Assembly (NCBI RefSeq): GCF_055900595.2
Contig: NZ_CM148325.1
Reading direction: 5' to 3' (one strand)
DNA: 64,000 bases
Shown: in pieces, positions 12,150 through 63,266 of the stretch
Position numbering within the stretch: the first letter of the stretch is position 1
How the letters are laid out: each line of letters begins with the position of its first letter
Notes under the pieces: generated by a model
Told to the model about the DNA's origin: nothing
Databases searched by the model: none
The model's input: the letters and a program-made list of their open reading frames with translations, nothing else
Position numbers and translations under genes: made by a program

Positions 12150-12728
12150 ATGTCTATACAGAACGAAATGCCTGGTTACAACGAAATGAACCAGTATCTG
12201 AACCAACAAGGGACGGGTCTGACCCCTGCTGAGATGCATGGTTTAATCAGTGGGATGATATGTGGTGGTAACGATGACAGCTCATGGCTGCCGCTGCTTC
12301 ACGACCTGACGAACGAAGGCATGGCTTTCGGTCATGAGCTGGCACAGGCATTGCGCAAAATGCACTCTGCTACCAGCGATGCCCTGCAGGATGACGGCTT
12401 CCTTTTTCAGCTTTATCTGCCTGATGGCGATGATGTCAGCGTTTTCGATCGGGCTGATGCGCTGGCAGGTTGGGTTAATCACTTCCTGCTTGGTCTTGGC
12501 GTTACGCAACCGAAGCTGGACAAAGTGACCGGCGAAACCGGTGAAGCCATCGACGATCTGCGTAACATCGCGCAGCTGGGCTACGACGAAGACGAAGATC
12601 AGGAAGAGCTGGAAATGTCGCTTGAAGAGATCATCGAGTACGTCCGTGTTGCCGCGCTGTTATGCCACGACACCTTTACTCATCCGCAACCGACCGCGCC
12701 AGAAGTACAAAAACCGACTCTACACTAA
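12150..12728 (+). CDS. ygfB: UPF0149 family protein YgfB
   Basis: ORF 12144..12728; the 192-aa protein begins [18 protein letters not shown] at the third codon. Confidence 0.85.
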
Positions 12729-36087: not shown

Positions 36088-36521
36088 CAGTGTTTCTCCT
36101 TTCGCCCGCCAGAGTAAAAAGCAACCGTTTACGTTATTGAAACTGTCTAAACATATGCTCGTGGAGTGCCAGTTTTTGCGAGGAAGGGGAGTTAGAGACA
36201 GGAATTGCGGAGGCAATCACATAATCGTGGTTAAACCACGAAAATGAGAAGAGAACCTGACAATGGAATTATCTGTAATTTTCTCATATTGATATTTCAT
36301 TAATCATTCTGGCATGTCGCACTCTCGCATTTAATCGTTTTTATCTGGATAGCGCTCTTTTGGTCGGCAATGTTGAAATAATGAAAGCGGCACAGATTGA
36401 GGGGTAATAATTTGAACTTAGTCACAAACTTATAATTAAAAAGTCATTCTACCTAATATATGCCCGTTTATTGCATCGCGAACTTTGAGAAGACATAACT
36501 CATTAAATGAAAGGGATGCAA

Positions 36522-43266: not shown

Positions 43267-46137
43267 TTATATTTTTTCCAGCGCGGTGAGTATTTTCTCC
43301 GGTGTGAAATGCCATTCGCGTAACCAGATGCCGCAGGCATCGTGAATTGCGGTAGCAATCGCCGGAGCTGCGCCATTTACACCGATTTCTGAGATTGATT
43401 TCGCCCCGAATGGGCCGACTTTATCGTCGCTCGGCACCAGCACAGCGCGGAAATCACGCGGAATGTCACCAATTTTCGGTGCGCCGTAACTGCGTAAATC
43501 ACGCGTTAACGGGTGGCCTTCGGCGTCATAAATGATTTCTTCGCTCATACTGTGCCCGATAGCACGCAGGGTGGCACCGTAGATTTGTCCCAACGCTAAC
43601 TCTGGATTGACCGGTGTACCGCAGTCCAGCAAGGCATAGAATTTATCCAGGCGGATTTCACCCGTACGTGTGTTGACGGCAACTTCAGCAAAGTTTGCGC
43701 CATACGGGAAGGCGAAATCAGGCGTGATATAACTGGCAGTTCCCACCAGTGAACCAAAACCGGTGCCGGTTTCGCCTTTATGGGCAATATCACCGAAACT
43801 AACTTCGCCTTTCTTGCCGCGAACGACACCCGGCGTTGCCAGTTGAACATCCTCCAGGGGTTCCCCCAGCATTTGTGCACCGTGGAACAGGATTTTCTCT
43901 CGGAGATTTTCTGCCGCCATACGCGCCGCGTTGCCGGAGAAACATGTACCGGACGAGGCATATGCGCCTTTATCAAACAGCGCATGATCGGTATCACCGG
44001 AGATAACATGCACGTCCTGCGGTGGGCAGTGCAGCACTTCTGCTGCCAGTTTCGTCACAACCGTATCCAGACCAGTACCAATATCCGCACCGCCAGAATG
44101 AACGATAAAAGTACCGTCCGATTCCAGTTTGATCATGCAGTTAGCCTGATCAATATCCGGGATACCCGATTTCTGCATGATAATGGCGACGCCGCGACCG
44201 ATGTGCCAGTCACCATTTTGCGGTTTTGGTGAAGACCATTGGATCATCTCGCGACCCTGACGCAGGATCTCTTCCAGCGCGCAGCTGGCGGCGGAAGGAA
44301 CGGAGGTCGGCGCTTTACCTTCACCAATCGCACCGAGAATTTTCAGCTCTTGCCCTTCGTGTACCCGATTACGTTCGATAATTTCCAGTTGATCGATCTG
44401 TAACTGTTCAGCCAGTTCCGCTAATGCCATGGTGATAGCGAAGTTACCTTTCGGTGCGCCATAACCCTGATAAGCACCATTTGGGCAAATGTTGCTGTAG
44501 TAGGTGGTGACCTGGAAATCGACGTTATCGCACGGATATAACGGCAGCGACAGCGCCGGTCCGTTACACGGTACGGTGAGTGAGTGGTTGCCGTAAGGGC
44601 CTGTGTTGGCGCGGAAATCCATCTTCACAGCCGTCAGGCGACCATCTTTCTTTGCCCCCAGTTTGACGGTGACTTTCGCGACGTGACGAGAGGTGTTAGC
44701 AATAAACTGTTCTTCACGGGTGTAGCGGAACAGTACCGGACGCCCGGTCACGCAGGTTGCCCAGGCGCACACTTCTTCCAGCAGGATGTCCTGTTTAGAC
44801 CCAAAACCGCCGCCAACTCGCTCTTTAATGACATGAACTTTATGTTGTTTCATGCCCACGAGGCGCGCGACCTGGCGGCGTAAGTGCCATGGTACCTGGG
44901 TGGAGGCGTGGATAACCAGACGATCGCCGTCCATACGGGTAAAGCAGATATGAGTTTCAGTCGGGCATTGCTGCGCCTGAGTTGAGTTATAGGTTCGCTC
45001 AATGATCACATCGGCATCGGCAAAGCCTTTATCCATATCGCCAATATGACCATGAATACTGGCGGCGATATTTTTACGAGGGCGAGAACCGATAGGGAAG
45101 TTGATAATCATATGCTCGCCGCGCTGGGCTGCATGGCTGTTATCGTCTTCCAGAGTGTCTGGCGCACCCGCCACATACACCACCGGTTCATCGTGTACGA
45201 CAGGCGCATCTTCCGCCATTGCCTCGTCAATCGACATTACAGGCTTAAGCACTTCATATTCAACGTCGATGAGCTTCAGTGCTTCGAGCGCAATTTCTTC
45301 ACTTTCAGCGACTACCGCAGCAACGCGATCGCCGACGTGACGCATTTTCTTGCCGAACATACGGCGGTCAAGCGGTGACGGTTCCGGTGCGCTCTGACCA
45401 CCCGGGGTGTAGTAGATATCCGGGCAATTCAGATGAGTAATAACGTGAACGACGCCTGGTAAGGCTTCAGCTTTGCTGACATCCAGGTGAGTAATCAGTG
45501 CGTGAGCGTGAGGGCTACGTAACATTTTAATGACGCAGGCGTCAGCCGTTACGCGGTCTTCAACATAGCAGGGTTTCGCCTGCACCATTTTTGCGGCATC
45601 AGTTTTAGGATAATGCTTACCAATGACTTCAAGGTCATCGCGGAAAGTCGGAGCGATATCAATGGTGGCCTGCGGGTTATTTTTACGTGCAACCGCCAGT
45701 TCAATGACCTGATAGTATTGTTGCCAGCCTGCATCGCGACTGAACAAACCAGAAAGCGCGTCGTCGATCTCTTCGCGGGTCGGTGCGGCGATACGCTCGA
45801 GCAGATCAGTGATAATCAGAGCAGCAGCTGGATCGTTATAACCAGACTGCACCACGCCAACATCAACCATTGCCTGTTGAACCAGACTTAACTCGTTCCA
45901 TTTTCCCAGAGACTCTGCGGTACGAATATTAGCCTTCTCTATCTGTGCGGCAATAAGTAAGGACGCGTTGACGATATTACCGTTAAAGATAATTGCGTCA
46001 GAACCGGCAAAACCGAATCCATCATCGCTGTTGCGTACAGAGTGCATTCCCATGTTAAACAACAGCTTTTGCACGTTTTCACCAGGATTAACGGTTAGCT
46101 CCTGGGGCGTGCCATTTAATGTAAAGTGGATGATCAT
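43267..46137 (-). CDS. xdhD: molybdopterin-containing hydroxylase, large subunit (xanthine dehydrogenase family, with N-terminal 2Fe-2S domain)
   Basis: 956-aa ORF. Confidence 0.88.
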   Translation of the reverse strand: MIIHFTLNGTPQELTVNPGENVQKLLFNMGMHSVRNSDDGFGFAGSDAIIFNGNIVNASLLIAAQIEKANIRTAESLGKWNELSLVQQAMVDVGVVQSGYNDPAAALIITDLLERIAAPTREEIDDALSGLFSRDAGWQQYYQVIELAVARKNNPQATIDIAPTFRDDLEVIGKHYPKTDAAKMVQAKPCYVEDRVTADACVIKMLRSPHAHALITHLDVSKAEALPGVVHVITHLNCPDIYYTPGGQSAPEPSPLDRRMFGKKMRHVGDRVAAVVAESEEIALEALKLIDVEYEVLKPVMSIDEAMAEDAPVVHDEPVVYVAGAPDTLEDDNSHAAQRGEHMIINFPIGSRPRKNIAASIHGHIGDMDKGFADADVIIERTYNSTQAQQCPTETHICFTRMDGDRLVIHASTQVPWHLRRQVARLVGMKQHKVHVIKERVGGGFGSKQDILLEEVCAWATCVTGRPVLFRYTREEQFIANTSRHVAKVTVKLGAKKDGRLTAVKMDFRANTGPYGNHSLTVPCNGPALSLPLYPCDNVDFQVTTYYSNICPNGAYQGYGAPKGNFAITMALAELAEQLQIDQLEIIERNRVHEGQELKILGAIGEGKAPTSVPSAASCALEEILRQGREMIQWSSPKPQNGDWHIGRGVAIIMQKSGIPDIDQANCMIKLESDGTFIVHSGGADIGTGLDTVVTKLAAEVLHCPPQDVHVISGDTDHALFDKGAYASSGTCFSGNAARMAAENLREKILFHGAQMLGEPLEDVQLATPGVVRGKKGEVSFGDIAHKGETGTGFGSLVGTASYITPDFAFPYGANFAEVAVNTRTGEIRLDKFYALLDCGTPVNPELALGQIYGATLRAIGHSMSEEIIYDAEGHPLTRDLRSYGAPKIGDIPRDFRAVLVPSDDKVGPFGAKSISEIGVNGAAPAIATAIHDACGIWLREWHFTPEKILTALEKI

Positions 46138-46963: not shown

Positions 46964-48292
46964 TTATGCCAGCGCATCCATCCGACGCCACATACTGGCG
47001 GCGGCTTTTTGGGCTTGCGCATAAATGGAATCGCAATCGAAGTTAAACTGACGGTCTTCATAGACCATAACGCCATTGACCATCACGCTATGAACGCTGC
47101 CTGAACCCATGCCGAAAGCGATATGTCCAGCGATATTGTCTGCCAGCAGTGGCGTCGGTGAGTTGTAATCGCAAATGGTTAAATCGGCTTTATAACCGGC
47201 TTCAAGAAGGCCAAATTTCGCGCCAAAGTTGCGGCTCATCAGTTCGTTGCCGTTAGCCAGAGCTTTGGCAAAGCTGTCAGGCCACAGCGGACCACCCGCA
47301 TCGCGATGTTTAAAGAAGGCAAATTTCATCTCTTCAAACATGTCCGAACCAATTCCGTCCGTTCCCAACGCCAGATTGCGGATGTCGCAAAGATGATGGT
47401 TGTAGCCGACATGGTTGTTCATGTTTGAACGGGCGTTATGCACCAGGAATGCATCACGCTGATTGAGCAACGCGATGTCGTCTTTAGACAGATAAAGCCC
47501 ATGAGCGACCAGCGTTTTGCTGTCGATGAGATCGAATTGCGCTAATCGTGCCAGCAGATCTTTGCCGTACCAGTGATGACTATGGGAAACATCGTAAAGG
47601 TCTTCCGCAGCGTGAATATGTAAACCACGGCCTGTGGCTTTCACGGCCTCACGCAGCATTTCCAGACCGGCATCCGGCACAGTAAACGGCGCGTGAGCAC
47701 CAATATGAGCCTCTACCAGATACGGTTCAGTTGCCGCTTTCTTCGCATCATCAATCTGACGGGCGAAGCGGATATTTTCCTCTACTCCTTCCTGTAGTTC
47801 TTTAATGCCGTTGTTACGGTCAGTGGTTTCAAAACAGGTCATCGCACGCAGGCCAACTTTTAAAAATGCGTTGCGCAATGTGGAGAGCGACCCGCCGATA
47901 TACGCCGGAGAGGCATGGTGATCGATAACAGATGTACATCCGCTCTTAATCGCTTCCAGGGAACAAATCAGTCCGCTGTAATAGAGAGACTCTTCATCAA
48001 GGGCGCGATCGAGTCGCCACCAGAGATTTTTCAGCGTTGAGATGAAATCCGGGCAGGGGGCGATGTTTGCCATAATTCCACGGGAAAGCCCCGAGTAAAA
48101 ATGGTTGTGCGAGCAGACAATTCCCGGCATCACAATCCGACCATGCATCTCTTTGTAGCTGGCATCGGGGTAGCGTTGCGTCAGAGCATCGCCTATAGCG
48201 ACAATCACATCATTTTCGATGGCGATATCAACGCCTTCCTGCACTTTCGCCGGGTGTAACTGCACTGCGGTGACATTCTTCAGAATCAACAT
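46964..48292 (-). CDS. ssnA: amidohydrolase-superfamily protein SsnA (chlorohydrolase/deaminase-like)
   Basis: 442-aa ORF with an HxH metal-binding motif. Confidence 0.88.
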   Translation of the reverse strand: MLILKNVTAVQLHPAKVQEGVDIAIENDVIVAIGDALTQRYPDASYKEMHGRIVMPGIVCSHNHFYSGLSRGIMANIAPCPDFISTLKNLWWRLDRALDEESLYYSGLICSLEAIKSGCTSVIDHHASPAYIGGSLSTLRNAFLKVGLRAMTCFETTDRNNGIKELQEGVEENIRFARQIDDAKKAATEPYLVEAHIGAHAPFTVPDAGLEMLREAVKATGRGLHIHAAEDLYDVSHSHHWYGKDLLARLAQFDLIDSKTLVAHGLYLSKDDIALLNQRDAFLVHNARSNMNNHVGYNHHLCDIRNLALGTDGIGSDMFEEMKFAFFKHRDAGGPLWPDSFAKALANGNELMSRNFGAKFGLLEAGYKADLTICDYNSPTPLLADNIAGHIAFGMGSGSVHSVMVNGVMVYEDRQFNFDCDSIYAQAQKAAASMWRRMDALA

Positions 48293-51393: not shown

Positions 51394-51473
51394 AACCCTC
51401 TCCTTAGCTTATACAGATATCATTGAGTGACCGGTGTTGAGAAATCCGGTGGTTTAGGGGGATAGAGCAACAA

Positions 51474-51490
51474 TCGCACCACTCTTGCCA
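51474..51490 (-). promoter_or_regulatory. candidate sigma54 (-24/-12) promoter for the ygfK-ssnA-ygfM-xdhD operon
   Basis: Minus-strand TGGCAA-gagtg-GTGC about 83 nt upstream of the ygfK ATG; GG and GC spaced as in the consensus TGGCAC-N5-TTGC. Confidence 0.3.
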
Positions 51491-51714
51491 GGTTTGGCGG
51501 GAAATATAAAAAAATGTGAGGCGGCTCGAAACTTAAGGGCTTTTTGTGAATGAACTCACAGGTGCCAAATGAGAATTAAAATCACTCCTGGAAATTATTA
51601 TTACCAGCCCATTTATCACTTTTTCTCTTTTCTCAAAATCAGTGATTCCTTATCATAATGATAAAGCAGGCTGGATGGTTTAAATATTTGAGCGCAAACG
51701 TTTAACTACGTTTT

Positions 51715-52395: not shown

Positions 52396-53166
52396 GTGAA
52401 AAGTATAGTTGACCCATCGGCATTATTCATTGATTTAGGCGCGCAGAAACGCCCCACTGTGATTTCTGTTGTTGGGGCTGGGGGGAAAACCAGCTTGCTT
52501 TTTTGGCTGGCAGAACTGCTCCAGGCTAGCGGCAGGCGTGTGTTAATCACTACGACGACACATATGTTTATGCCAACGTCTCACTGGCCCGTGGTTTTCT
52601 GTCGTGATCCCGCCATGCTTCCTCATGCGTCTCTTACATCCCCCATTTCATTTTGTTTTCACAGCTGGAAAGCGAACCAGGGAAAAGTGCAGGGATTTAT
52701 GCCAGAAGCGATTGATGCACTGGTGCAACGACCAGAGTGTGACGTAATTCTCATTGAGGCAGATGGCTCGCGTGGAATGCCGTTAAAAGCGCCTGATGAG
52801 CACGAACCTTGCATACCCAAAAGCAGTTGCTGCGTGATTGCTGTGATGGGAGGACATATTTTGGGTGCGAAAGTGAGCACAGAAAATGTCCATCGCTGGT
52901 CGCAGTTTGCTGATATTACCGGGTTAACACCTGATGCAACCTTGCAACTGAGCGATCTCGTTGCGCTGGTTCGCCACCCTCAGGGCGCATTTAAAAACGT
53001 ACCGCAAGGTTGTCGGCGAGTCTGGTTCATTAACCGTTTTTCTCAATGTGAGAATGCGATTGCGCAAAGCGAGCTCCTTCAACCGCTGCAACAACACGAC
53101 GTAGAGGCAATCTGGCTGGGCGATATACAAGAACATCCTGCAATCGCGCGCAGATTTGTGAATTAG
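52396..53166 (+). CDS. yqeC: YqeC, accessory protein of the putative selenium-dependent molybdenum hydroxylase system
   Basis: 256-aa ORF with P-loop-like VVGAGGKTS. Confidence 0.8.
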   Translation: MKSIVDPSALFIDLGAQKRPTVISVVGAGGKTSLLFWLAELLQASGRRVLITTTTHMFMPTSHWPVVFCRDPAMLPHASLTSPISFCFHSWKANQGKVQGFMPEAIDALVQRPECDVILIEADGSRGMPLKAPDEHEPCIPKSSCCVIAVMGGHILGAKVSTENVHRWSQFADITGLTPDATLQLSDLVALVRHPQGAFKNVPQGCRRVWFINRFSQCENAIAQSELLQPLQQHDVEAIWLGDIQEHPAIARRFVN

Positions 53167-54839: not shown

Positions 54840-54879
54840 ATGAAAATGGCCGGATGGTATTACCCACCCGGCCTTTAAA

Positions 54880-57245: not shown

Positions 57246-57297
57246 AGCAAACTCCAAAAACCCTCCGGCGAACCGGAGGGGAATAAGTGAAGAGTAA

Positions 57298-58566: not shown

Positions 58567-59763
58567 TTAAGGTGCTACAGAGTGTTTGCCTTCCCAGACA
58601 ACTTCGCGGTAGTGCTTCACGTCGGTGTCGCCTTCAGTGCTGATAACCAGCACCACGGCATCTTTGTTCAGCGCTAGTTTTTCCATCAGGCTTTGACGTT
58701 GCGGGTGATAATGAACCGCCGCGAGAACGCCCAAACCGACAGCGCCGGATTCACCGGAGATGATGCGCGGGTCGTTGCCGTACGGATTACCCAGCACGCG
58801 CATACCTAATGCGGCAACGCTGTCCTGGCAGGAGATGAATTGGGTGGCGCAGTTACGTAGAATCTCCCAGCCCAGCGGGTTAGGTTCGCCGCAGGCCAGA
58901 CCCGCCATGATGGTGGCCATATCGCCGCCAACGTTGACGATGTCGCCTTTGACGCCGGAGCGATAAATACAGTCAGCTTTGTCAGGTTCAACAATAATGC
59001 TGTGCAGATTTTGCGGGCTGTAGACGTCGACCAGATAACCCAGTACGCCGCCGGCCATCGCGCCGACACCGGCTTGCAGCAGAACGTGAGTTGGGGTTAC
59101 GCCCATTTCACGCATTTGCTCGACGGCTTCATCTGCCAGAGTGGCATAGCCCTGCATGATCCAGGTTGGGATTTTGGTGTAGCCTTCCCAGGCGGTATCT
59201 TGCACCACTTCCCAGCCGTGTTGCTGCGCGTGTTGCATGGTCAGACGAACGGTATCGTCATAGTTCATATCAGTGACGATGCACTCGGCTCCGAGGTTCA
59301 GAATGGCGTCAACGCGTTCCTGAGCGGAACCTTTCGGCATGTAAATTACCGCGTTCTGACCGAGTTGCTGTGCTGCCCAGGCAACACCGCGCCCGTGGTT
59401 GCCGTCGGTCGTTGTAGCAAATGTCATTTTTTCGCCGATGGCACTTTTCAGATGCTCGAATGACAGTGTTTCGATATCAAGATGATATTTTTCGCACAAC
59501 AACTGAGCGATGGCATATGCGCCGCCGAGCATTTTGAATGCGTTCAGACCGAATCGTTTTGATTCGTCCTTAACGAGAATTTTTTTTACCCCAAAAAGGT
59601 TTGCGAGATCGTCCAGCGCGCAAAGTGGTGTTGGGCGATAGCCAGCAATTTTCTGGTGGAACTGGCGCGCCAGTTTTGCCTGGCTTTGCGAAAAGAGCGG
59701 TGATGTTTCGCCGTTGAAAAATTTGTTATCGGCGATATCAATCTTCAATGAGAAAACGGACAT
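58567..59763 (-). CDS. dpaL: diaminopropionate ammonia-lyase (PLP-dependent)
   Basis: 398-aa ORF (YgeX). Confidence 0.88.
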   Translation of the reverse strand: MSVFSLKIDIADNKFFNGETSPLFSQSQAKLARQFHQKIAGYRPTPLCALDDLANLFGVKKILVKDESKRFGLNAFKMLGGAYAIAQLLCEKYHLDIETLSFEHLKSAIGEKMTFATTTDGNHGRGVAWAAQQLGQNAVIYMPKGSAQERVDAILNLGAECIVTDMNYDDTVRLTMQHAQQHGWEVVQDTAWEGYTKIPTWIMQGYATLADEAVEQMREMGVTPTHVLLQAGVGAMAGGVLGYLVDVYSPQNLHSIIVEPDKADCIYRSGVKGDIVNVGGDMATIMAGLACGEPNPLGWEILRNCATQFISCQDSVAALGMRVLGNPYGNDPRIISGESGAVGLGVLAAVHYHPQRQSLMEKLALNKDAVVLVISTEGDTDVKHYREVVWEGKHSVAP

Positions 59764-59821
59764 ATCCTATCCTTTTGGCCTCTGGAAATAGAGAGCCGAC
59801 CTGTCGATCGGCCCGAGGGGG

Positions 59822-61012
59822 TTATTTCACGCGTTCTTGCGCTTCTTTCAGCAGTTGTTCGAGCAGTGCGCCTGGTTTGGAATATTTACGGGAAAGGATC
59901 ATTGCTGCGATGATGTATGGCTTCCAGCTGGCTTCTTTGTAGGTCGCGATACGGTATTTTTCGAATACGCCTTCAGTGACTTCACCTTCTTTGCAGGATA
60001 CGCCGCTGATATCTGCTGGCAGGCAGTGCATGTACAGGGCTTCGCCATCACGGGTCAGTTCCATCATCTCTTCAGTGCAATGCCAGTCTTTGTGTTGCGC
60101 GTTCTGTGCCAGACACTGTTTTTCCAGTGCTTTTAAGCCTTCGTGATCGTTCGCACGCAGCAGTTCAGTACGCTCTTCCATCACTTTGTAAGGTGCCCAT
60201 GACTTCGGATAAACGATGTCTGCGTCTTTGAAGGCTTCTTCCATGCTGGTGACCTGACGGAAGCTACCGCCAGAGGCTTTAGCATTATTTTTAGCTACTT
60301 CAACTACATCCGGGATCAAATCGTAGCCTTCCGGATGGGCCAGGGTGACATCCATACCGAAGCGGGTCATCAGGCCGATAATGCCTTGCGGTACAGAGAG
60401 CGGTTTGCCGTAGCTTGGCGAGTATGCCCAGGTCATGGCGATTTTTTTACCTTTCAGGTTTTCGAGCGAACCAAAGTGTTCACGCAACCATGCCAGGTCA
60501 GCCATTGACTGAGTCGGATGGTCGATATCGCATTGCAGGTTCACTAAAGCCGGACGCTGTGGAAGCACGCCCTGCTTGTAGCCGTCATCAAGCGCAGCGC
60601 CAACTTCACGCATATAGGCGTTACCTGCGCCCAGATACATATCGTCACGAATACCAATAGAGTCGGCGCAGAAGGAGATCATATTGGCGGTTTCACGTAC
60701 GGTTTCGCCGTGAGCGATTTGTGATTTGCCTTCGTCGAGATCTTGCTGTGCAAGGCCGAGCAGGTTAAGCGCGGAAGCATAAGAGAAGCGGGTACGGGTG
60801 GAGTTGTCGCGGAATACGGAAATACCTAATCCACTATTAAAGACTTTGGTTGAGATGTTTTCAGCACGCAGTGCTTTTAATGCTGCGGCAACGTCCAGTA
60901 CTTGTTTCAGTTCATCAGGCGTCTGTTCCCACGTTAACAAAAAATCTTTCTCGTGAAGGTGAGAGGTCAGCGAATTGATATCCTTAATCAGCTCATTAAC
61001 AGTTTTCATCAT
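59822..61012 (-). CDS. ygeW: carbamoyltransferase YgeW (ATCase/OTCase fold)
   Basis: 396-aa ORF MMKTVNELIKDINSLTSHLHEKDF with carbamoyl-phosphate-binding STRTR. Confidence 0.88.
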   Translation of the reverse strand: MMKTVNELIKDINSLTSHLHEKDFLLTWEQTPDELKQVLDVAAALKALRAENISTKVFNSGLGISVFRDNSTRTRFSYASALNLLGLAQQDLDEGKSQIAHGETVRETANMISFCADSIGIRDDMYLGAGNAYMREVGAALDDGYKQGVLPQRPALVNLQCDIDHPTQSMADLAWLREHFGSLENLKGKKIAMTWAYSPSYGKPLSVPQGIIGLMTRFGMDVTLAHPEGYDLIPDVVEVAKNNAKASGGSFRQVTSMEEAFKDADIVYPKSWAPYKVMEERTELLRANDHEGLKALEKQCLAQNAQHKDWHCTEEMMELTRDGEALYMHCLPADISGVSCKEGEVTEGVFEKYRIATYKEASWKPYIIAAMILSRKYSKPGALLEQLLKEAQERVK

Positions 61013-61103
61013 AAAGTCCCGGTAGTGGAATGACAGGCAAAGTGGTTTATTTCACTGTGACTTGCCAAAGTGATTGGTGTTTTCACAGCTATACCAGGGA
61101 CTA

Positions 61104-61118
61104 ACAATAAGTGTGCCA
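61104..61118 (-). promoter_or_regulatory. candidate sigma54 promoter for ygeW
   Basis: Minus-strand TGGCAC-actta-TTGT about 90 nt upstream of the ygeW ATG; -24 element perfect, -12 has GT instead of GC. Confidence 0.3.
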
Positions 61119-61487
61119 GAATTATCCACGCGGCTATAAAAGACTAATTTGACGGGTAATGTGTGGTGTAGATCACAAATTGATGCCAGCTTCCGGTTGT
61201 GTGTAAAATACGAAAACGTTTGGCTTTTTTTATTGCGTTGTTTATTTGCTGCTAAGTATCAGAAATAAGATAAAGGGGCAGGCTATCCCTCGTCAGTTTG
61301 ATAAACTCACCGCTGTAATTCTCATATTGATATAGAAATGTGATATCTCTTCCATAATTTCATTAGAAAGTGATAAAAACCTTATGTTTTTATCAAAGCC
61401 AATTTCGCCTGAGTTAATATCATGATGATCTGTGAACCATCAACGTCTTCAATGATCGACTTTTAAGTAAGTCTGGAAGGTAAAGCT

Positions 61488-63266
61488 ATGGAGCTTGCTA
61501 CTACGCAGTCAGTATTGATGCAAATTCAACCGACAATTCAGCGTTTTGCCAGAATGCTTGCCAGCGTTTTGCAGCTTGAGGTTGAGATCGTTGATGAAAA
61601 CTTGTGTCGCGTCGCCGGAACGGGCGCGTATGGGAAGTTTCTTGGCCGCCAGTTGAGCGGCAACTCACGCCTGCTCCGCCACGTCCTGGAAACGAAAACT
61701 GAAAAAGTTGTGACACAGTCTCGCTTCGATCCCCTTTGCGAAGGTTGCGATAATAAAGATAATTGTCGCGAAAAAGCATTTCTGGGTACGCCTGTCATTT
61801 TACAGGATCGTTGTGTTGGGGTGATAAGTTTGATTGCAGTTACCCACGAGCAACAAGAACATATCAGTGATAATTTACGCGAGTTTTCTGATTACGTTCG
61901 CCATATATCCACCATTTTTGTTTCGAAACTTCTGGAGGATCAGGGACCAGGAGATAACATCAGTAAAATATTCGCGACCATGATCGATAATATGGATCAG
62001 GGCGTATTAGTTGTTGATGACGATAATCGGGTTCAGTTTGTTAATCAGACGGCCTTAAAAACACTCGGTGTTGTGCAAAATAATATTATTGGGAAACCTA
62101 TCCGTTTCAGACCATTAACATTTGAGAGTAATTTTACCCACGGACATATGCAACATATTGTTTCGTGGGACGATAAAAGTGAATTAATCATTGGTCAATT
62201 GCATAACATTCAGGGCAGACAATTATTTTTAATGGCGTTTCACCAATCGCATACCAGTTTTTCTGTAGCAAATGCACCTGATGAACCGCATATTGAACAA
62301 TTGGTTGGCGAGTGCCGTGTTATGCGGCAATTAAAACGACTCATTAGCCGTATTGCGCCCAGCCCATCCAGCGTTATGGTGGTTGGTGAAAGCGGCACGG
62401 GTAAAGAAGTCGTCGCGCGTGCAATCCATAAGTTGAGTGGAAGACGAAATAAACCCTTTATTGCTATCAACTGTGCCGCGATTCCTGAACAACTTCTGGA
62501 GAGCGAACTATTCGGTTATGTTAAAGGCGCATTTACTGGCGCTTCAGCCAACGGTAAAACAGGGTTGATTCAGGCGGCGAATACGGGCACGCTGTTTCTC
62601 GATGAAATTGGTGATATGCCATTAATGTTGCAGGCTAAATTACTGCGCGCTATTGAGGCGCGTGAAATACTGCCGATTGGTGCCAGTAGCCCAATTCAGG
62701 TCGACATCCGAATCATTTCTGCAACTAACCAGAATTTGGCCCAGTTCATTGCCGAAGGTAAATTCCGCGAAGATCTCTTCTACCGACTCAATGTTATCCC
62801 GATCACTCTTCCACCGCTGCGTGAACGTCAGGAAGATATTGAACTGCTGGTACATTACTTTTTACATCTGCATACCCGTCGTCTGGGATCGGTTTATCCG
62901 GGTATTGCTCCCGATGTCGTCGAGATATTGCGTAAGCATCGTTGGCCCGGAAACCTGCGCGAGTTAAGCAATTTAATGGAATATCTGGTTAACGTTGTTC
63001 CTTCAGGTGAAGTTATCGACAGCACGCTATTGCCTCCAAATTTGCTGAATAATGGCACAACGGAGCAAAGTGATGTAACAGAGGTCAGCGAGGCGCACTT
63101 GGCACTCGATGATGCGGGCGGCACGGCGCTGGAGGAGATGGAAAAGCAAATGATCCGCGAGGCGCTTTCACGTCATAACAGCAAGAAGCAAGTTGCTGAT
63201 GAACTGGGTATCGGCATTGCTACGCTCTATCGCAAGATAAAGAAATATGAGTTGTTAAACGCATAA
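61488..63266 (+). CDS. ygeV: sigma54-dependent transcriptional activator (bacterial enhancer-binding protein)
   Basis: 592-aa ORF with Walker A GESGTGKE, GAFTGA motif and C-terminal HTH. Confidence 0.9.
   Translation: MELATTQSVLMQIQPTIQRFARMLASVLQLEVEIVDENLCRVAGTGAYGKFLGRQLSGNSRLLRHVLETKTEKVVTQSRFDPLCEGCDNKDNCREKAFLGTPVILQDRCVGVISLIAVTHEQQEHISDNLREFSDYVRHISTIFVSKLLEDQGPGDNISKIFATMIDNMDQGVLVVDDDNRVQFVNQTALKTLGVVQNNIIGKPIRFRPLTFESNFTHGHMQHIVSWDDKSELIIGQLHNIQGRQLFLMAFHQSHTSFSVANAPDEPHIEQLVGECRVMRQLKRLISRIAPSPSSVMVVGESGTGKEVVARAIHKLSGRRNKPFIAINCAAIPEQLLESELFGYVKGAFTGASANGKTGLIQAANTGTLFLDEIGDMPLMLQAKLLRAIEAREILPIGASSPIQVDIRIISATNQNLAQFIAEGKFREDLFYRLNVIPITLPPLRERQEDIELLVHYFLHLHTRRLGSVYPGIAPDVVEILRKHRWPGNLRELSNLMEYLVNVVPSGEVIDSTLLPPNLLNNGTTEQSDVTEVSEAHLALDDAGGTALEEMEKQMIREALSRHNSKKQVADELGIGIATLYRKIKKYELLNA

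Follow-up and report, generated by a model that had tools for sequence, protein, structure and literature searches.

The DNA analysed here (the window, 64 kb) is a piece of the Escherichia coli chromosome. Positions 60900-61600 (701 bp) are 100% identical to several strains, and this stretch was found in 5181 of 5426 complete genomes. The window belongs to an E. coli lineage other than that of K-12, and the flanks of the sigma-54 site described below are ~96-98% identical between the two. The spacer under study separates two divergent genes, ygeW and ygeV (Table 1). According to the annotation, ygeW is the first gene of a ygeW-ygeX-ygeY(-hyuA-yqeA) unit, and the remaining genes of the purine/urate cluster flank ygeW-ygeV on both sides. 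The spacer (61013-61487) measures 475 bp counted to the first in-frame ATG of ygeW (61012), which is the length given for it in the initial annotation, and 478 bp counted to the second (61009). The two neighbouring in-frame ATGs lie at 61007-61012; the longest ORF runs from 61012, and the RefSeq start is 61009.

Terminator-like hairpins were present on the minus strand after ygeY (57261-57280, a GC-rich stem followed by TTTTT) and after yqeA (54848-54873), with a weak one after ygeW (59793-59814). The hairpin positions fit a ygeWXY unit and suggest read-through into hyuA-yqeA. The ygeW-ygeX-ygeY operon is part of the E. coli cluster for anaerobic (reductive) degradation of uric acid and purines. 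The recently solved pathway of anaerobic uric-acid degradation, by which gut bacteria clear urate, is encoded by ygeWXY, hyuA-yqeA, ygfK-ssnA-ygfM-xdhD and xdhABC together; work to build it into probiotics against gout is under way (PMC12507026).

Table 1. Genes and sequence elements at the ygeW/ygeV spacer and at the related promoters of the window (distances from the predicted transcription start).
Feature	Position	Strand	Position relative to start	Sequence, basis or remarks
ygeW, knotted carbamoyltransferase	59822-61009	minus		RefSeq; Pfam OTCace_N and OTCace
ygeV, sigma-54-dependent regulator, divergent from ygeW	61488-63266	plus		RefSeq; PAS, AAA+ sigma-54 interaction domain (GAFTGA), HTH_8
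Predicted ygeW leader	61010-61092	minus		80-83 nt by choice of ATG; promoter geometry
ygeW sigma-54 core promoter	61103-61119	minus		CTGGCACACTTATTGTT (TGGCAC-N5-TTGT); motif matrix, published ChIP-seq site, conservation
ygeW CRP-type site	61162-61177	minus	centred -77.5	TGTGATCTACACCACA; one mismatch to TGTGA-N6-TCACA
Degenerate second dyad	61291-61303	minus		TATCAAACTGACG; 29 bp closer to the promoter than the main palindrome; conserved TTATCA(A/T)nnTGG
ygeW palindrome, candidate YgeV upstream activating sequence	61320-61332	minus	centred -234	TATCAATATGAGA (TATCA-N3-TGAKA); recurrence, conservation
Conserved block AAATATG..ATCACA	61339-61354	minus		TGGAAGAGATATCACA in E. coli; 20.5 bp distal of the palindrome
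ygfK sigma-54 site	51466-51482	minus		published as OS31; CRP consensus and palindrome upstream, layout as at ygeW
ygfK CRP site	51545-51560		-97.5	TGTGAGTTCATTCACA; perfect consensus
ygfK palindrome	51651-51663		-202	TTATCATTATGATAA; perfect
ygfT sigma-54 site	36459-36475	plus		published as OS32, weak motif; uacT/ygfT divergent spacer
ygfT CRP-like site	36411-36426		-67.5	TTTGAACTTAGTCACA
ygfT palindrome	36282-36294		-198	TCTCATATTGATA; reverse complement of the ygeW 13-mer TATCAATATGAGA

The sigma-54 core promoter carries GG at -25/-24 (61117/61116) and GT at -13/-12 (61105/61104), and the 3' end of the 17-mer lies 92-95 nt from the ygeW ATG. Compared with the sigma-54 consensus (GG at -24 and GC at -12, 10 bp apart), the GG and the spacing are exact and the -12 element is GT. 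This agrees with the initial annotation, which had read TGGCAC-N5-TTGT on the minus strand about 90 nt upstream of ygeW and described the -24 element as perfect and the -12 element as having GT in place of GC. From the -24/-12 spacing, the ygeW transcription start is predicted at ~61092, a position that may be 1-2 nt off. A riboswitch or otherwise structured ygeW leader was ruled out by the folding of the leader (z -0.36, non-significant) and by the lack of an Rfam match above threshold.

The bare pattern TGGCAC-N5-TTG occurs three times in the 64 kb (0.93 expected), a number reached in 8 of 100 shuffles. This raw count is non-significant alone and was dropped as evidence; a leave-one-out weight matrix was used instead, built from 41 other published intergenic E. 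coli sites (Bonocora et al.) with the ygeW site excluded. Over both strands of the 64 kb the ygeW site ranked first, at 16.05, a value close to the training-set median. Matches scoring at least as high are expected by chance ~0.56 times per 64 kb (both strands) and ~0.002 times per 475-bp spacer in the right orientation.

The ygeW sigma-54 promoter itself is already known. The same 17-mer is the sigma-54 ChIP-seq site OS30 of MG1655 (FAT 3, distance 80, downstream gene ygeW; Table 1 in Bonocora 2015, PMC4591121), and its sequence, orientation and distance to ygeW are identical to those of the site in the window; the two are one and the same site. A gSELEX peak of the RpoN holoenzyme (53-55%) falls within the ygeV/ygeW spacer (Shimada 2021, PMC8743547). 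The sigma-54 promoter of ygeW was also predicted by Francke et al. 2011 (PMC3162934), and the PRECISE-1K report credits the sigma-54 promoters upstream of xdhABC and ygeWXY to Reitzer and Schneider 2001 (PMC10602906). In PRECISE-1K, the YgeV iModulon includes ygeWXY as well as xdhABC, ygfK-ssnA-ygfM-xdhD and ygfT (PMC10602906). Liu et al. (bioRxiv 10.1101/2022.07.24.501321) state, after Iwadate and Kato 2019, that ygeV is involved in formate-dependent urate consumption. RNA polymerase with sigma-54 on the ygeW site as a closed complex is thus published; a mapped ygeW transcript start, or rpoN- or ygeV-dependent ygeW expression, was not found in the searchable literature.

Eighty loci encoding YgeW homologues were fetched and scanned for sigma-54 motifs. 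In 18 gammaproteobacterial or Rhodocyclaceae loci a strong sense-strand motif preceded ygeW by 68-140 nt (by 231 nt in one locus). The motif was found in all of the Enterobacterales, Aeromonas, Photobacterium, Rhodocyclaceae and Endozoicomonas loci, being weaker in Endozoicomonas. The loci of Bacteroidota, Firmicutes, Spirochaetes and other groups showed no comparable motif directly upstream of ygeW, apart from one borderline Lachnospiraceae match (13.2). In the Firmicute loci scanned, another gene probably precedes ygeW in the operon. In Clostridiales, the sigma-54 activator DioR controls dpaL, ygeW-ygfK-ssnA-ygeY, yqeB/yqeC and xdhC homologues (PMC6615313); the DioR and YgeV regulons are alike in placing genes of the ygeW/ygfK/ssnA type under a sigma-54 activator, but the activator lineages differ.

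Alignment of 11 Enterobacterales spacers (mean column identity 50%) revealed four conserved blocks: the -24/-12 element, GTGA-N6-TCnCA ~55 bp upstream of -24, a distal block (AAATATG..ATCACA..TATCAAtATGATAAtt..N13..TTATCA) and two short TGATA elements near ygeV. The -24/-12 element was the most conserved block of the spacer in these 11 genera, and among the E. coli strains compared the 17-mer was unchanged while its flanks vary. The conservation shown here places promoter, CRP site and palindrome alike under purifying selection. The sigma-54 promoter that the initial annotation had offered as a candidate is supported by OS30, the gSELEX peak, the predictions of 2001 and 2011, its first rank with the matrix and its conservation.

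The GT at -12 had been taken in the initial annotation to weaken the sigma-54 call, an objection that does not survive the comparison. In the 20 gammaproteobacterial and Rhodocyclaceae ygeW promoters examined (E. coli included), the base at -12 was T in 11, A in 7, G in 2 and C in none. Because C never occurs at this position in the 20 promoters, the non-consensus T at -12 is best read as a conserved property of the ygeW promoter, not as decay or a defect. The sigma-54 promoters of pspA (TTGTA), pspG (TTGTA) and hydN (GTGAA) are confirmed and also lack C at -12 (PMC4591121). The ygeW promoter resembles those of pspA and pspG in having GG at -24 and GT for GC at -12; it differs in that the activator is PspF there and in that ChIP occupancy is FAT 21 and 15 there versus 3 at ygeW. 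The pspA and pspG promoters use IHF. In -12 mutants of sigma-54 promoters, the closed complex is less tightly locked. The T at -12 of ygeW probably gives a weak closed complex, and hence a strong dependence on the activator and on the architecture of the promoter; the -12 deviation plausibly explains the low ChIP signal (FAT 3).

The CRP-type site upstream of the core promoter (TGTGATCTACACCACA) keeps the critical G and C of TGTGA-N6-TCACA. In 13 orthologous loci (14 counting E. coli) GTGA-N6-TCnCA has its centre between -76.5 and -78.5; in three it is at -67.5. Substitutions within E. coli are limited to the N6 spacer. Across genera the site stays at a constant distance from the promoter, and its distance to ygeV ranges from 308 to 413 bp. 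A native Crp-binding site in the ygeV/ygeW spacer is mentioned in PMC12507026, where glucose represses urate degradation and constitutive promoters replacing the Crp site of the spacer lift this repression. The IHF consensus (WATCAANNNNTTR) had no match in the spacer at 0 or 1 mismatch (~1 expected by chance). The spacer had been thought to leave room for upstream activator sites and IHF bending; the first part stands, with candidate dyads such as the one at 61320-61332, and the second does not, a CRP site being found in the place of IHF. CRP-like sites were also present at the sister promoters of ygfK (perfect), ygfT (one mismatch) and xdhA (-67.5, two mismatches). Since the offsets from -77.5 are 10 and 20 bp, the CRP sites of the four promoters would lie on roughly the same helical face.

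CRP at -77.5 might act negatively, as at glnAp2, dctA and Pu, or might serve ygeV only. CRP-cAMP inhibits the sigma-54 promoters dctA, glnAp2, glnHp2, ast, nif and Pu through AR1-alphaCTD contacts, and all of the sigma-54 promoters listed in that work are down-regulated by cAMP-CRP (PMC3900584). In the glnAp2, dctA and Pu cases cAMP-CRP acts on the promoter-bound sigma-54 holoenzyme from upstream, and the CRP site of ygeW lies upstream as well. However, several of the inhibited promoters are without a specific CRP site, whereas the ygeW promoter has a conserved, specific one, and the physiology suggests a CRP effect at ygeW that is positive or permissive: glucose represses urate degradation rather than stimulating it, an effect that could be indirect. 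Moreover, the CRP-like sites are in register (10 or 20 bp) at four promoters of the regulon without an IHF site, and the ygeW site holds its distance constant relative to the sigma-54 promoter but not relative to ygeV. We consider a negative or a ygeV-only role of CRP unlikely, if still to be reckoned with. A positive role of CRP at ygeW is the least secure step of the mechanism proposed below; it is drawn from glucose repression, which is possibly indirect.

Two other sigma-54 operons of E. coli, prpR-prpBCDE and hyf, are reported to need cAMP-CRP. Like ygeW, they are catabolic operons with a sigma-54 promoter, an enhancer-binding protein encoded divergently or close by, and catabolite control by CRP. 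In the YgeV regulon, four promoters have phased and conserved CRP sites. Two further sequences, ACGAAAACGTTTGGCT at 61209-61224 in the ygeW spacer and AGCGCAAACGTTTAACT at 51691-51707 upstream of ygfK, resemble the PurR box. The first of them was ruled out as a core element of the design by the cross-genus alignment, in which it is unconserved outside E. coli.

YgeV has a complete sigma-54 activator core (Sigma54_activat match 8.7e-71, Walker A GESGTGKE, GAFTGA and a C-terminal HTH_8), and its orthologues (53-76% identity) are divergent from ygeW in 14 loci. The divergently encoded enhancer-binding protein that the initial annotation had pointed out is thereby confirmed, and repeated dyads, which it had proposed to look for as YgeV sites at 61120-61480, do exist there, the main one being the palindrome at 61320-61332. 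The informative dyad was found by comparison across species and across promoters; a generic repeat finder gave mostly chance pairs. Upstream dyads are expected ~80-250 bp from a sigma-54 promoter, and at the level of sequence the palindrome falls within this range. TATCA-N3-TGA(T/G)A has four sites in the 64 kb (0.08 expected), three of which are upstream of published sigma-54 sites (ygeW, ygfK and ygfT). The palindrome is present upstream of all four sigma-54 promoters of the YgeV regulon (ygeW, ygfK, ygfT and xdhA), at 130-235 bp from those of ygfK, ygfT and xdhA; at xdhA, whose promoter is just outside the window, CTCATATTGATA lies at ~-131 and TATCACATTGATT at -152. These recurrences make TATCA-N3-TGA(T/G)A a candidate YgeV binding motif. 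No paper describing a YgeV site or the promoter design of the regulon was found in the searchable literature.

The exact palindrome was found at -270 to -120 in 13 of the 18 orthologous loci and once elsewhere in 126 kb, in loci that are phylogenetically non-independent and in surroundings that are poorly conserved. Cedecea sulfonylureivorans and Erwinia mallotivora have no palindrome but retain the sigma-54 motif, with a CRP-like site at -67.5; the YgeV homologues of these two loci are only ~53% identical to E. coli YgeV. The recognition helix of YgeV was compared in the loci without the palindrome, and LGIGxATLYRKIKKY is kept everywhere, so co-variation cannot discriminate here. As for the conserved block at 61339-61354, it may belong to the enhancer or represent a second CRP-like half-site.

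The distal block (61291-61354) could also be the promoter or operator of ygeV (autoregulation, or another regulator, e.g. Fur) and not an enhancer of ygeW. Only ~160 bp separate it from the ygeV ATG, the spacer is at its most AT-rich there (28-31% GC), a sigma-70 -35 and -10 could be formed by the TTATCA and TAATAT elements nearer ygeV, and sites of divergent enhancer-binding proteins often serve both functions. The palindrome is AT-rich, and that of ygfK matches 10 of 12 positions of a Fur half-box, which was counted for the Fur reading. Nevertheless, the same palindrome occurs at the ygfK, ygfT and xdhA promoters without an adjacent ygeV. Aeromonas popoffii has a co-directional ygeV, with the palindrome past the stop codon of ygeV. 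In A. lacus and a Rhodocyclaceae MAG, ygeV is missing from the neighbourhood, the genes divergent from ygeW are unrelated (an esterase-like gene and adenosine deaminase) and both the palindrome and the sigma-54 motif are kept. The distance from the palindrome is also tighter to the ygeW start (234-248 in most Enterobacterales) than to ygeV (152-267). By this comparison, the putative enhancer module follows the ygeW promoter and not the 5' end of ygeV. We judge a role of the block at ygeV in place of ygeW improbable; it could double as a ygeV operator, its primary role probably being at ygeW. The AT-rich palindrome could be read as Fur-like, but its context does not support this.

A perfect 10-nt inverted repeat (TGATAAAAAC-N5-GTTTTTATCA) was observed at 61371-61395, ~95 bp before the ygeV start codon; TGATA and TATCA half-sites fall within it, as does a possible ygeV -35 element. 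In BL21 and ST131 the repeat is imperfect, and other genera do not conserve its second arm. It is E. coli-specific and was counted among the chance pairs of the repeat finder, not as an informative dyad. The fourth exact palindrome of the window, TATCAAGATGATA at 59475-59487, lies inside ygeX/dpaL at ~+1611 from the ygeW start, and Kosakonia cowanii has one at the equivalent position (+1613). This intragenic palindrome could reflect a coding constraint or be an intragenic site.

Taken together, we propose, with a probability of roughly 85%, that the minus-strand site at 61103-61119 serves the ygeW-ygeX-ygeY operon as its sigma-54 promoter, with YgeV acting from the palindrome and cAMP-CRP probably shaping the loop. 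YgeV would bind TATCA-N3-TGA(T/G)A ~234 bp upstream, together with the flanking half-sites, oligomerise and contact the closed-complex polymerase by DNA looping; ATP hydrolysis by YgeV would then open the ygeW promoter. The loop would probably be shaped by cAMP-CRP at -77.5, a position that is usually that of IHF, through a bend or an alphaCTD contact, and CRP would couple the ygeW operon to carbon status, making it glucose-repressible.

That the sigma-54 site is bound and non-productive (poised or 'noise'), ygeW being transcribed from a sigma-70 promoter, perhaps a CRP-activated one, would agree with the low ChIP signal, the non-consensus -12 and the CRP site upstream, and Bonocora et al. deliberately write 'binding site' instead of 'promoter' and warn that many sigma-54 sites may never fire (PMC4591121), but it is very improbable, as the position and orientation of the -24/-12 element are kept across orders of Gammaproteobacteria in surroundings of ~50% column identity and the element is accompanied by a cognate activator and a regulon-wide upstream palindrome. 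A sigma-70 promoter for ygeW was rejected: the scan of the spacer gave a single minus-strand candidate, whose -10 hexamer overlaps the ygeW start codon, and the best overlap built by hand (TGGATA-14 nt-TATTGT) has an impossible spacer.

Beyond the known promoter, the analysis contributes a cross-species comparison that answers the -12 objection, a candidate YgeV motif and a conserved layout, apparently common to the regulon, with CRP in place of IHF. We give an even chance to the broader proposal that the YgeV purine/urate regulon follows an undescribed design, in which a YgeV palindrome would form an enhancer 130-250 bp upstream, phased and positively acting CRP (-67.5/-77.5/-97.5) would replace IHF and the -12 of ygeW would be selected against C. 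The YgeV motif and the position of CRP provide a handle on the inducer, on glucose repression and on rebuilding the regulation of the cluster. A positive CRP replacing IHF at sigma-54 promoters, if true, would run against the inhibitory pattern described in PMC3900584.

The matrix also gave other sigma-54 matches in the window. The second-best, ATGGCGCAAACTTTGCT at 43687-43703 on the minus strand (score 15.6), sits in xdhD, at the 3' end, and is oriented toward xanQ; the tables of Bonocora et al. do not include it, and no palindrome or CRP site was found nearby. Further matches were observed at 47538-47554 (minus strand, in ssnA) and 12339-12355 (plus strand). TGAGCACGAACCTTGCA, at 52797-52813 on the plus strand inside yqeC, is the published intragenic sigma-54 promoter IS34, which was validated by mutation as the promoter of yqeB (PMC4591121).
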